In this document: piece after piece, positions 12,469 through 51,900 of the stretch
How positions within the stretch are numbered: the stretch's first letter is position 1
Layout: every line of letters begins with the position of its first letter
Source: an uncultured Candidatus Binatia bacterium
Lineage (GTDB): Bacteria; Desulfobacterota; Binatia; Bin18
NCBI GenBank assembly: GCA_965200965.1
Contig: OZ241744.1
Span: 2,464,001-2,528,000 of the forward strand
DNA length: 64,000 nucleotides
Direction of reading: 5' to 3'
Position numbers and translations under genes: made by a program
Notes under the pieces: generated by a model
Told to the model about the DNA's origin: nothing
The model's input: only the letters and a program-made list of their open reading frames with translations
Database searches by the model: none

Positions 12469-13428
12469 TCAAACCGAGCGACCATCCTGTGGGTCACTGC
12501 GCGGCTCCTCAGCCAGGCATTCAACCACGAACACCTGGCCCTGGTGAGCCACGGTTCTGGCAAGGCTGTCCGCCGCGCGGTGGGCGGCCGCCCGGTGGCC
12601 GAACAGCCCGAAGACGGTCGACCCACTCCCGGACATCAGCGCCACCTCGGCCCGGGCAGCCAGGAGCCTGTTTTTGAGGTCTTGAAGGAGGGGATGGGCT
12701 GGAAGGACGGCCCGCTCAAGATCGTTGACACAAGCGGCCGGCGACGGCCAGCCATCTGCCAAGACAGCGATCGTTGGAGACGGGCCGTCAGCGGTCGCCC
12801 CGAGCATCTGGTCAAAACGCCGATAGGCCCACGCTGTGGAGACGCCAAAAGCCGGAACGATCAGGACCAGCCAGCGCTTCCCGGCCAACCTGACCGGCCT
12901 CAACTCCTCGCCGATCCCCGTCACCCGGGCCGGCCGACACGGAATGAAAAACGGCACATCCGCACCCAAACGCAGCCCCAGTTCGCACAGTCGCTGCTCG
13001 GTCCAGCCAAGCCGCAGCAGGATGTTGAGCCCTTTCAGGACCGCCGCGGCATCGCTGCTTCCACCGCCCAAGCCAGCCCCGACCGGAATGCGTTTTCTCA
13101 GACGGAGCGAGAGACGGGCGGCGAGCCCGGCTTCCTGACACAGCAGCAAGGCGGCGCGATAGGCCAGATTGGTCTCGTCGCTCGGAAGACATGGAGTATC
13201 GCAACTCAGGCGAATCTGTGCCGGGCGGGCGGCTGAGACCATAAAAGGTGTATCGTCTTGCCTTCCTCTCGACCGGATAAGACGCTTCACCTTATCGTCC
13301 AGCCGTATCCGAATCTCGTCGCACAGGCTGACCGGCAGCATGAGAGAATTGAGCCGGTGATACCCGTCTTCCCGCCGGCCCACAATATGCAAAAACAGGT
13401 TGACTTTGGCTGGAGCAAGAACCCGCAT
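12469..13428 (-). CDS. ispE: 4-diphosphocytidyl-2-C-methyl-D-erythritol kinase (carries an element insertion)
   Basis: APAKVNLFL, KRIPVGAGLGGGSSDAA, GADVPFF, MSGSGS. Confidence 0.96.
   Translation of the reverse strand: MRVLAPAKVNLFLHIVGRREDGYHRLNSLMLPVSLCDEIRIRLDDKVKRLIRSRGRQDDTPFMVSAARPAQIRLSCDTPCLPSDETNLAYRAALLLCQEAGLAARLSLRLRKRIPVGAGLGGGSSDAAAVLKGLNILLRLGWTEQRLCELGLRLGADVPFFIPCRPARVTGIGEELRPVRLAGKRWLVLIVPAFGVSTAWAYRRFDQMLGATADGPSPTIAVLADGWPSPAACVNDLERAVLPAHPLLQDLKNRLLAARAEVALMSGSGSTVFGLFGHRAAAHRAADSLARTVAHQGQVFVVECLAEEPRSDPQDGRSV
13244..13294 (-). mobile_element. Palindromic element copy 1 (in ispE, sense)
   Basis: AAGGTGAAGCGTCTT-ATCCGGTCGAGAGGAAGGC-AAGACGATACACCTT; encodes KVKRLIRSRGRQDDTPF. 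Confidence 0.88.
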
Positions 13429-13476
13429 AGGCCCTGTTGTTGCAGGCTCCGGCCACCTATGCAACAAGGTGACAGT

Positions 13477-14325
13477 ATGCACACCAACTCCTGGCACAAC
13501 GATCTCGACCACTACCTCGGCATTGCTCAAGAAGTCGCACGGCAGGCGGGATCCCTGCTCAAAGACAACTGGCTTAGGACCAAAACGGTTGAAATCAAAA
13601 CGGATATAGTTGACTTGGTCACCAATGTTGACAGAGCAGCCGATGCGCTGATTACCGAAGCGCTCCACACCCGTCTTCCAGACCATCAAGTCTTGGCCGA
13701 AGAATCAGCCCTGTCAGGACCCGCCAGCCCGTATCGGTGGTATATTGACCCGCTGGACGGCACCACAAACTTTGCCCACACTTTTCCGCATTTTGCCGTT
13801 TCCCTCGGACTGACCTACGAGTCACACCCGATCGTCGGGGTGGTCTATGACCCGCTTCGGGACGAACTCTTCTGCGCCCGCCGGGGCACAGGGGCAAGCC
13901 TCAACGGCCGCCCCATACAGGTCTCTTCCATTCCATCCCTTGACCGCAGCATGCTGCTGACCGGCTTCCCGTATGATCGACGTCAGCGCAGCCAATTCTA
14001 TCTCAGCTTCTACCAGGCCTTTATGCTGCACACCCAAGGCATACGACGCAGCGGCTCGGCCGCTCTTGATCTGTGTTATACGGCCTGTGGTCGCGCCGAC
14101 GGCTTTTGGGAGTGGCGTTTATACCCCTGGGATAGTGCAGCCGGTGCCCTGATTGTTGAAGAAGCCGGTGGGCGGATGAGCGACTTCGGGGGGGAGACCT
14201 TCGAGCTAGCCGGGGAGCAACTCCTGGCGTCCAACGGAAAAATTCATCGGGCGCTCATTGAGGTCCTCCAGCATGTCCTGTCCACCTCATATGAGCGACC
14301 CGAGGCGGCGGGGCAGGACGGCTGA
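13477..14325 (+). CDS. suhB: Inositol monophosphatase
   Basis: DLVTNVD, IDPLDGTTNFAH, GSAALDLC, WDSAAG. Confidence 0.93.
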   Translation: MHTNSWHNDLDHYLGIAQEVARQAGSLLKDNWLRTKTVEIKTDIVDLVTNVDRAADALITEALHTRLPDHQVLAEESALSGPASPYRWYIDPLDGTTNFAHTFPHFAVSLGLTYESHPIVGVVYDPLRDELFCARRGTGASLNGRPIQVSSIPSLDRSMLLTGFPYDRRQRSQFYLSFYQAFMLHTQGIRRSGSAALDLCYTACGRADGFWEWRLYPWDSAAGALIVEEAGGRMSDFGGETFELAGEQLLASNGKIHRALIEVLQHVLSTSYERPEAAGQDG

Positions 14326-14337
14326 GGCTCCCCGCTT

Positions 14338-49721: not shown

Positions 49722-50292
49722 ACGCTACGCCAAAGCCCTGCTCAGCCTGGCCCAAGAGGCCGGACAAGAGGAGGCCATCGGGGCCGAACTCAAACACATT
49801 AGCGCTATACTGGTCGAGCCCAGCCTGGCCCAGATCATGGCGCTCCCAACCCTGTCGCCTAAAACACGGAGTGATATTGTCGAGAGCCTGATCCGCGCCG
49901 CCGCGCCACACGCGCTGGTGGCCAACTTTCTGCGCGTCCTGGCCGTCAACGATCGTCTGAATACGGTAGCCGATATTGAGAGCGGCTATCAAGTGCTGCT
50001 CGAAAAACTGCTGGGGCGGGTGAGAGTCAAGGTCAAATCGGCTTCCGAGTTGTCCAGGGACGAGATCCAAGCCATTGTTGACGCCTTCAGTCAGAAGATA
50101 GAGAAGACTGTCATCCCAATCCTCGAGATTGAGCCTGAGTTGTTGGGTGGGGTGACAGTTGAAATTGAGGGCCGGGTATACGACGCCAGCCTTAAGACCC
50201 AACTCCAACGCCTCAACCAGTCATTGGCCCAAAGACGAATCGCCTTGAGCGGTCGAGAGGAAGACAAGACGAATCGTCTTCAGCGGCTGTAG
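49705..50292 (+). CDS. atpH: ATP synthase subunit delta (element-derived C-terminal extension)
   Basis: [24 protein letters not shown]. Confidence 0.93.
50231..50281 (+). mobile_element. Palindromic element copy 9 (atpH 3' end)
   Basis: AAAGACGAATCGCCTT-GAGCGGTCGAGAGGAAGAC-AAGACGAATCGTCTTC, 51 bp; a partial AAGAGGAAGAAAGACGAA follows near 50308. Confidence 0.92.
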
Positions 50293-50374
50293 GGATTGCC
50301 TGAATGAAAGAGGAAGAAAGACGAAGGTCAAGTCCCAGGTCATTGTCTCTGACCTTCCCGAGAAAGAGGGTGTA

Positions 50375-51883
50375 ATGGAACTGCGTGCGGCTGAGATCAG
50401 CGAAATTATCAAGCAACAGATCCAGGGCTATGACACACAGGTTGAGTTGCGCGAGACAGGGACCGTGCTATCGGCCGGCGATGGGGTCGTGCGTATTCAT
50501 GGCTTGGACCAGGTTGCGTCCGGTGAATTACTCCAGTTTCCGGACGACGTGTTTGGTCTGGCCCTGAACCTTGAAGAGGACAATGTCGGGGCCGCGGTGT
50601 TTGGCGAGGTCCAAGCCATTAAAGAGGGCGATGAGGTCCGCCGCACCGGGCGTATCGCCGAGGTCCCGGTTGGCGAGGCCATGCTGGGCCGCGTGGTCAA
50701 CGCTCTCGGTCAGCCCATCGACGGCAAAGGGCCGATCGAAAGCGCCGAGTTACGGCGGATTGAGGTCAAAGCCCCGGGTATTGTCTTGCGCCAGCCGGTC
50801 AAAGAGCCGGTCCAGACCGGTCTGAAAGCCATTGACTCCATGATCCCAATCGGCCGTGGGCAGCGCGAACTCATCATTGGCGACCGCCAAACCGGAAAAA
50901 CCGCCATTGTTGTCGATACCATCATCAACCAGAAGGGCGGCGATATGCAGTGCATCTACATCGCCATCGGTCAGAAGCGTTCGACCGTCGCCCAGGTGGT
51001 TGAGCGTCTGACCCGCGCTGGTGCACTGGACTATACCACCGTCGTTGTCGCCAGCGCTTCGGACGCCGCCCCGTTGCAGTTTATCGCCCCCTATGCCGGG
51101 TGTGCGATTGGCGAGTACTTTCGCGATACCGGCAAGCACGCGCTCGTCATTTACGATGACTTGTCCAAGCACGCGGTGGCGTATCGACAACTGTCTCTGC
51201 TGCTGCGTCGTCCGCCGGGCCGCGAGGCGTTCCCGGGCGATGTCTTCTACCTGCACTCCCGTCTGCTCGAACGGGCCGCCAAGATGAGCGATGCCGAAGG
51301 GGGCGGGTCGCTGACCGCCCTGCCGATTATTGAAACCCAGGCCGGTGATGTATCGGCCTACATTCCGACCAATGTGATTTCGATTACCGATGGGCAGATT
51401 TTTCTTGAAACCGACCTGTTCAACTCGGGTATTCGTCCCGCGGTCAACGTTGGTATTTCGGTCTCCCGCGTCGGCGGTTCAGCCCAGATCAGAGCCATGC
51501 GTCAGGTCGCCGGTTCGCTGCGGCTCGACCTGGCCCAGTACCGGGAGATGGCCGCCTTCGCCCAGTTTGGTTCCGACCTTGATGCTGCCACCCAAAGGAT
51601 GCTGGCGCGTGGCACGCGCCTCGTCGAGGTACTCAAGCAGGGACAGTACGAGCCGTTGCCGGTCGAAAACCAAGTGCTCATCATTTACGCCGGTACAAAC
51701 GGCTTTCTGGACAATCTGTCAGAGTCGGTATTGAAAAAATATGAGACCGAACTGTTCCGGTTTGTGGATACCAACCACCCCGAGATCCTGGCGGAGTTGC
51801 GGACCAAGCGTGAGTTGACGGATGATATCAGGGCGCGCCTTGAAGCGGTCCTTCGAGAGTTCAACGACACGTTCACGCAATAG
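50375..51883 (+). CDS. atpA: ATP synthase subunit alpha
   Basis: [18 protein letters not shown]. Confidence 0.99.
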
Positions 51884-51900
51884 AAGACACCTCGTCTTTG
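51883..51900 (-). mobile_element. Solo arm of the palindromic element in the atpA-atpG spacer
   Basis: Minus strand CAAAGACGAGGTGTCTTC versus gpsA left arm CAAAGACGAGGCGTCCTC (16/18). Confidence 0.65.

Follow-up and report, generated by a model that had tools for sequence, protein, structure and literature searches.

How did related palindromic segments of 51 to 54 bp come to lie, in frame, inside unrelated housekeeping genes, and do the peptides that they encode matter to the host proteins? These questions arise from the window, the whole 64,000-nucleotide stretch of Candidatus Binatia DNA that was analyzed. An earlier note on this DNA had described nine full copies with inverted arms of ~16 bp; all nine were verified, both in their coordinates and in the names of their host genes. 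The mnmG element does measure 53 bp, as had been claimed, but the net insertion there is 54 bp. The copies and remnants of the window are as follows.

12254..12305 (+): degenerate subfamily-C copy, intergenic
13244..13294 (-): full 51-bp copy in ispE, adding 17 aa in frame; the sister species (G007) has an empty site
26761..26811 (+): full 51-bp copy, intergenic
31309..31335 (+): core and arm remnant at the end of an enoyl-CoA hydratase gene, missing from the earlier list
36001..36054 (+): full 54-bp copy in rlmD, within a variable N-terminal extension (conserved rlmD start at 35846); common to the sister species
37496..37546 (-): full 51-bp copy in pgeF, antisense and in frame; absent from the sister species through a 60-bp deletion
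38597..38650 (+): full 54-bp copy in gpsA, a clean 18-aa insertion (GpsA aa 174-191)
39759..39807 (+): degenerate subfamily-C copy at the 3' end of rnpA
40305..40358 (+): yidC, at about aa 156, a degenerate copy that takes the place of host residues; common to the sister species
40747..40776 (+): 30-bp remnant (core and right arm) in yidC, a 10-aa insertion in YidC
42329..42361 (+): 33-bp remnant in jag; the full 54 bp kept in the sister species, other congeners empty
42766..42819 (+): full 54-bp copy in mnmE, a clean 18-aa insertion at MnmE aa 47; common to the sister species
44502..44519 (-): 18-bp single-arm remnant in mnmG, a 6-aa insertion in MnmG; sister species without it
45712..45765 (+): element of 53 bp in mnmG, with a net gain of 54 bp or 18 aa at MnmG aa 552; common to the sister species
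46248..46271 (+): 21-bp insertion with a left-arm remnant in rsmG, 7 aa in RsmG; sister species without it
47607..47659 (+): 53-bp copy in parA, within the variable C-terminal tail
50231..50281 (+): full 51-bp copy in atpH ahead of the last two codons, a 17-aa extension
51877..51899 (+): right-arm remnant at the atpA stop; the sister species retains a left-arm part
63943..63992 (+): subfamily-C copy; common to the sister species

The remnant at the atpA stop and the left-arm part in the sister species are likely one ancestral copy. At the parA tail site, a C-type copy is found in four other congeners examined, while G002 is empty.

The window holds a small part of a much larger family. An HMM built from the nine copies, a check that the earlier note had suggested, returned 54 genome matches at E<=0.1 against 0 in the reversed and 0 in the shuffled genome. 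Refined HMMs found 174 loci (0 to 2 per model in shuffled or reversed controls), and a hairpin scan that used no HMM gave 66 matches, compared with 1 and 3 in controls. The final HMMs had drifted toward subfamily B and lost 13 loci, including the gpsA and parA copies; with these restored, the union of models and re-added loci comes to at least 187 loci of the hairpin family in the closed 3.62-Mb genome. The statistics on strand bias, gene location, target site duplication (TSD), arm mismatches, intergenic half-sites, and target motif are those of the set before the 13 were restored, and copy lengths in the genome-wide tables, being extended to model ends, lean toward 51. In contigs from a second study, positions 35800 to 52000 run uninterrupted and differ by 77 substitutions and 0 gaps over 2 runs, which rules out an assembly artifact. 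By a crude gene caller, which mis-set the rlmD start, 74 of the 174 loci (about 43%) lie inside genes. The coding fraction of the genome is 84%, so the family, earlier taken to be mainly intragenic, is depleted from genes, yet far from extragenic. Genic copies use three frames and both strands. Copies are crowded 4-fold near the origin, and similar copies cluster locally (17 of 95 nearest neighbors within 20 kb versus 2.5% of all pairs). No two copies are identical, the closest pair differing at 2 of 51 positions, and this absence of identical copies does not point to present activity.

In comparison with orthologs, IspE, GpsA, Jag, MnmE, MnmG, and AtpH show clean insertions of 51 or 54 bp, and the target is not duplicated. 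Orthologs lack the segments, contrary to the refuting case set out in the earlier note, and their gaps match the element ends; at gpsA, jag, mnmE (two sites), and mnmG these gaps are clean and 54 bp long. The claim of in-frame insertion into housekeeping genes is borne out by these clean indels, but not at rlmD and parA, where the copies occupy variable terminal tails. In the sister species, where 64 of 135 full copies could be compared from 800 kb of sequence, 28 of 33 young B-type sites are empty, and 21 of these 28 differ by exactly the element length. Duplication of 4 bp was seen at 1 of 127 copies and of 5 bp at 0 of 127. Flipping in place was not seen among 13 equal-length copies common to both species, one nominal flip being an alignment offset. 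Only two genera of the host's family harbor the element, which occurs there in bursts, and its insertion waves are lineage specific and successive, with A and C older and B young. The purine core, described earlier as a shared feature, is typical of only the source genome and its sister species, whereas congeners have the same arms with different loops. Searches of viral contigs gave 0 matches to the core pattern and 65 to a 16-base pattern, none with full-length arms; one metagenome search gave 0 matches, and another gave 19 of the congener type. Empty sites, lineage-specific waves, and the absence of TSD support the proposal of a short, non-autonomous mobile element that inserts in frame, like the Rickettsia palindromic elements (RPEs).

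We asked what the insertion sites share. C at -4 or G at +4 is present in 92 of 99 sites, compared with 52% of random sites, and the two occur together in only 24 of 99 (odds ratio 0.15, p=6e-5), fewer than the 34 predicted by independence. The C precedes the cut by four bases and stands on one side of the target alone. The motif was also found in 21 of 22 empty sites (one misaligned row of 23 left out), in 18 of 21 and 24 of 30 sites of other genomes, and as 44 of 76 half-sites in intergenic copies. The element's own 3' ends carry C at -4 in 190 of 198 cases, and the terminal G-C pair at the motif position is the most constant pair of the stem (70 of 74). Element ends read RAAG or RAGG and CTTY. 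The 16-bp terminal inverted repeats have conserved outer bases and covarying interiors (199 two-sided changes versus 86 in shuffled arms), and the stem is long and the loop structured; arms are self-palindromic in subfamily A only. There was no lagging-strand bias for subfamily A (22:22), for B (44:38), or for the target motif (46:40), and G-T mismatches in the arms are about as frequent as A-C, hence no signal of strand-specific folding and no RNA-strand wobble bias. Rfam returned no match to the element. A likeness to the SRP loop and helix was rejected, since 2591 of 7.2 million positions score equally.

The one-sided target C, together with the same motif at the element's 3' ends, follows an IS200/IS605-like logic and points to single-strand transposition. 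We therefore lean, if modestly, toward a 51- to 54-bp non-autonomous mobile hairpin that inserts precisely and without target duplication. An HUH-type nuclease (IS200/IS605- or RAYT-like) probably mobilizes it in trans, in single-stranded form. Cleavage of the folded strand would fall 3' of the motif, which lies outside the element at the left end and within it at the right, and the excised strand would then be joined to a new motif-bearing target. Because both ends look alike, either strand could be moved, which would yield both orientations. The nuclease may have been lost or may have been transient. In weighing this account we counted in its favor the precise sites, lack of TSD, one-sided target, 3'-end motif, covarying arms, and neutral inserts (below). 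Counted against it were the absence of Y1, the unflanked Y1, RT, and integrase loci, the lack of strand bias, of strand-specific folding, and of identical copies, and the position of the conserved base at -4 rather than adjoining the cut.

The search for a mobilizing enzyme covered the Y1, Y2, IS110, Phage_integrase, and reverse transcriptase (RT) families. No Y1 transposase was found in the source genome by Pfam PF01797, a custom HMM, tblastn, or an HUH motif scan, nor in the copy-rich genomes G007, G003, G005, and G050. PF01797 was present in 3 of 8 genomes of the genus and 39 of 55 of the family, with matches commonest in genera without the element. Y2 was found in 0 of 8 in the genus, the source genome included. 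The element flanks none of 30 Y1, RT, or integrase loci; for the Y1 loci of relatives, of which 14 of about 30 fetched were scanned, the count is 0 of 14. Genes bracketed by copies look ordinary by eye, and neither they, nor 47 of 78 host or neighbor genes searched with Pfam, nor the recurring neighbor genes of related loci offered a mobilizer candidate. It is conceivable, though on balance unlikely, that an unrecognized transposition system outside Y1, Y2, IS110, and RT is at work, which would insert a hairpin of ~50 nt bluntly, in either orientation, four bases past a single C. If so, its chemistry would be nearly sequence free, scarless, and frame preserving, and dozens of essential proteins would have been rewritten by it across two Binatia genera.

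Less probable still is a site-specific recombinase (tyrosine, serine, or IS110 type) acting through an end-to-end junction, with targets that need one good half-site. Such a junction would form a perfect dyad with C at -4 and G at +4, and the lack of TSD and of strand bias also fits. However, sites with both halves are underrepresented, as given above, no IS110 transposase was found in the source genome, and its only two Phage_integrase genes are not flanked by the element. A double-stranded circle of 51 bp is also implausibly short. We are slightly more doubtful that no dedicated enzyme is involved, with host replication or repair copying hairpins by template switching and patching them into breaks. 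The crowding near the origin and the local clusters of like copies are in keeping with this, as is the lack of a mobilizer among the searched families, but exact unit-length insertion at unrelated sites without flank homology, fixed ends and target base, and bursts limited to two genera are not. For a retron route, in which RT would produce an msDNA-like hairpin for insertion at forks, there is a myxobacterial precedent, and the long stem with a structured loop would suit it. We consider it very unlikely, however, since the sole RT in the source genome is interrupted by a stop and has no copy nearby, seven copy-rich genomes (G001, G005, G050, G051, G052, G061, and G075) gave no RT match, 0 of 13 RT loci in both genera have an adjoining msd-like copy, and RNA-strand wobble bias is absent. 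A classical MITE moved by a DDE transposase that binds terminal inverted repeats is just as improbable: 16-bp repeats with conserved outer bases agree with it, but blunt empty sites without TSD already weaken it, the arm interiors covary, and the target is one-sided.

Under the favored single-strand account the inserted peptides are incidental, and their divergence was compared with that of their surroundings. At six loci with shared inserts, divergence by codon position is 0.20/0.18/0.18 in the inserts versus 0.055/0.054/0.168 in the flanks. Equal divergence at all three positions indicates that the peptides are tolerated passengers, not selected loops; the inserts evolve like neutral passengers without protein-level constraint, and many decay by deletion. 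The earlier statement that the element writes new peptide loops into proteins is literally so, and mapping onto a predicted GpsA model (pLDDT 92.8) places the insert as a probable coil, of low confidence, between helix and strand, but the loops appear tolerated rather than functional. With a length of 17 to 18 codons and mostly open frames, copies may survive in loops and tails of essential proteins, where selection would filter them and make no use of them. Although A-type copies in genes are 20:2 sense, more than open frames predict (p=4e-4), a domesticated module, with peptides or mRNA hairpins retained because they serve, for example, regulation or SRP-like binding, is the least credible reading of all, given the neutral codon pattern, decay, depletion from genes, use of three frames and both strands, nonsignificant SRP-loop likeness, and lack of an Rfam match. 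The family maps natural insertion-tolerant loops of essential proteins, and its mover, if found, would be an enzyme for scarless insertion of short DNA with minimal target needs.

Literature searches found no published description of the element, and known systems are compared here as the available portions of the cited papers present them. Prokaryotic MITEs (PMC10969869) likewise have terminal inverted repeats, code for no transposase, and occasionally form in-frame fusions, but the element is smaller than their 70 to 300 bp (PMC3733652) and lacks TSD. The cuts made by IS200/IS605 enzymes follow two tetranucleotides, a conserved one in the target that flanks the left end and the one that terminates the right end, and IS608 and ISDra2 target the lagging-strand template (PMC6006769). 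The element resembles them in its one-sided motif upstream of the left end, a similar motif at the right end, and the lack of TSD. It differs in that its hairpin is terminal rather than subterminal, it inserts in either orientation without lagging-strand bias, and no transposase, nor any parent element with TnpA sharing its ends, was found. Like REPs and REPINs, it is a short, non-autonomous, many-copy hairpin with two inverted arms around a spacer (PMC3116915, PMC8266576, PMC3733652). Unlike them, it has no GTAG or CGTC tetranucleotide at its ends and no adjacent RAYT gene, both of its ends are precise where REPIN excision is asymmetric, and self-palindromic arms are limited to one subfamily. 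In location it differs less clearly, with about 43% of its copies genic. The element works like RPEs and REPINs, yet fails REP membership.

How RPE-like elements enter genes, and whether their peptides are relevant, has been hard to test; this family brings together, within one clade, dated waves, dozens of sites in matched empty and filled states, a rule for the target, and a direct test of neutrality. RPEs, of which RPE-1 measures about 150 bp, often insert in frame in unrelated conserved genes (PMC10969869, PMC3733652), and palindromes in frame also occur outside Rickettsia, as intragenic REPs in some species (PMC3733652). As described there, RPEs share with the element a palindromic repeat, in-frame insertion in conserved ORFs, and the addition of related peptides, with no mobilizer established for either. 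Length and host phylum set the two apart, and the element carries no CGTC terminal tag; for it, empty sites, the target rule, and neutral evolution have been measured.

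The nine full palindromic copies that an earlier note had reported in the window, partly in frame inside housekeeping genes, were all found where it placed them and align over 51 to 54 columns; its named copies belong to subfamily A. NCBIfam upheld ispE, rlmD, pgeF, gpsA, yidC, jag, mnmE, mnmG, rsmG, and atpH as host genes, and parA encodes a ParA-type ATPase. The closest named relative of this GpsA is from Ca. Binatia (59%). Contigs from a second study cover positions 35800 to 52000 with 77 substitutions and 0 gaps relative to the window, and the inserts are therefore real and common to a conspecific strain. 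Iterated HMM scans of the whole genome (3.62 Mb in one contig, with the window at positions 2464001 to 2528000) returned 44 A, 82 B, and 48 C loci, 174 in all, versus 0 to 2 per model in controls; the total rose to 187 once extra matches of the first model were added. All share one architecture, with arms of ~16 bp around an asymmetric loop of 19 to 22 nt. The arms covary, mainly within a variable middle block (199 two-sided changes versus 86 in shuffles; counts of this kind are inflated by relatedness, but slid controls reach at most 74). The fourth arm pair is G-C in 70 of 74, and G-T and A-C mismatches are similar in number. An Rfam search of the window returned three tRNAs and nothing else. 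The GC-skew minimum falls inside the window, where the replication origin likely lies; up to 150 kb from it, copy density is raised about 3- to 4-fold, and neighboring copies tend to resemble each other.

A covariance model matched 15 of 61 relatives, every one in the host family (6/7 genomes in genus g1, 7/10 in g8, and 1/6 in g10, the last a single weak match). Across 301 genomes of the class, an arm pattern gave matches in 28; g1 and g8 account for 26 of these, including the element's own genome, and the two others have one match each. Copies in congeners keep the arms, differ in the loops, and are often 53 or 54 bp long. Matches in viral sequences were attributable to chance.

Comparison with the sister species G007, which covers 64 of the 135 full copies, found the corresponding B sites to be empty in 28 cases, partial in 4, and full in 1, while A sites were 5 empty, 7 partial, and 9 full and C sites 1 empty, 1 partial, and 8 full. 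Since B sites are mostly empty and A and C copies often retained, the B wave is young, and those of A and C are older. The length difference equals the element exactly at 21 of 28 empty B sites. Protein and DNA alignments likewise bore out the expectation that ortholog gaps coincide with element ends, with exact 18-amino-acid/54-bp gaps in gpsA, jag, and mnmG and at two positions in mnmE, of which one is filled in G007 only. Old copies lose sequence by deletion, which inside genes mostly preserves the frame (jag, yidC, rsmG, mnmG, and atpH in G007). Neither in-place flipping of copies nor strand-specific stems were observed. In another relative, G004, the positions in pgeF and at the atpH 3' end, or their immediate surroundings, are occupied by inserts of a different kind (L112/L113), which suggests that tolerant sites are used repeatedly by sister subfamilies; an A/B model search of its genome found no copy.

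Only 74 of 174 loci lie inside called genes, versus 84% of the DNA being coding, and thus selection removes many intragenic copies. A length divisible by three is intrinsic to the element, since it is also seen in 38 of 40 intergenic A/B copies (lengths extended to model ends and biased toward 51). The orientation of B copies in genes agrees with stop-codon avoidance (P = 0.27), while A copies display a sense excess beyond it (20:2, P = 4e-4), presumably reflecting longer selection against more hydrophobic antisense peptides. In six inserts shared with G007, first, second, and third codon positions diverge by 0.20, 0.18, and 0.18, versus 0.055, 0.054, and 0.168 in the flanks, which shows that the peptide is not constrained. 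In the GpsA model (pLDDT 92.8), the insert is predicted to be a coil (pLDDT about 50 to 60) between helix and strand. A cas3 gene (L146:5128-7941) carries three in-frame copies.

Coding and intergenic copies follow the same target rule: the base at -4 is C, or that at +4 is G, in 116 of 198 half-sites (P = 5e-16). At least one half is present in 92 of 99 sites and both in 24; the halves are anti-correlated (odds ratio, 0.15; P = 6e-5), and the requirement is therefore one-sided. The loop is oriented either way (31:37), and A at -6 and C at -5 are avoided. The rule was found again in 21 of 22 empty sites and is weaker in other genomes of g1 and g8 (18/21 and 24/30). At the 3' ends of the element itself, position -4 is C in 190 of 198 cases and position -5 is T in 146. 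No TSD was found at the copies, which separates them from classical MITEs. IS200/IS605 enzymes act on single-stranded DNA at a motif that precedes the cut, lying beyond the left end and within the right end, and leave no duplication (PMC6006769, PMC8266576). Because motif placement and the lack of TSD match these enzymes, we infer a mover of the HUH type. Two results count against this: neither A nor B is biased toward the lagging strand (C, 16:32), and no candidate emerged among the Y1, Y2, IS110, integrase, and RT genes searched. The genome has no Y1, Y2, or IS110 gene; it has two integrases and one RT gene interrupted by TAG (L187:1048-2421), with a similar RT match in G007. The element was present at 0 of 30 Y1, RT, or integrase loci in this genome and relatives, and Y1 genes are commonest in genera lacking it.

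The element is like RPEs (PMC10969869) in outcome and would be like REPINs (PMC3116915) or IS605 derivatives in its inferred mechanism. It differs from REPs in having neither REP tag nor RAYT; intragenic REPs are known from O. terrae, R. conorii, and others, according to PMC3733652. No description of the family was found in the literature covered, which excludes most subscription papers. The family is real, of a known kind, and apparently unpublished; the present analysis adds a target rule that is one-sided and a test of neutrality, and the missing enzyme is the point at which more could be gained. The relative G006 harbors a separate family, in which RAYT-like genes (L152:2053-2078 and L154:1426-2025) come with small hairpins of their own and with in-frame repeats that resemble REPs.

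Other repeats were also observed. In the window, a Sel1-repeat protein gene (57599 to 59125, minus strand) contains nine 108-bp tandem repeats (57638 to 58801), and two tandem DUF5916 paralogues (26955 to 31281; about 73% identical, spacing of 2,128 bp) adjoin a TonB-dependent receptor (33525 to 36143). An AAA_15/AAA_21 ATPase immediately following the atp operon (54690 to 55997) is possibly a defense gene. Elsewhere in the genome, two large arrays of ~2.4-kb repeats with 88 to 92% identity occupy positions 271000 to 306000 and 1131000 to 1165000, and more long tandem arrays lie at 2.82 and 3.37 Mb.
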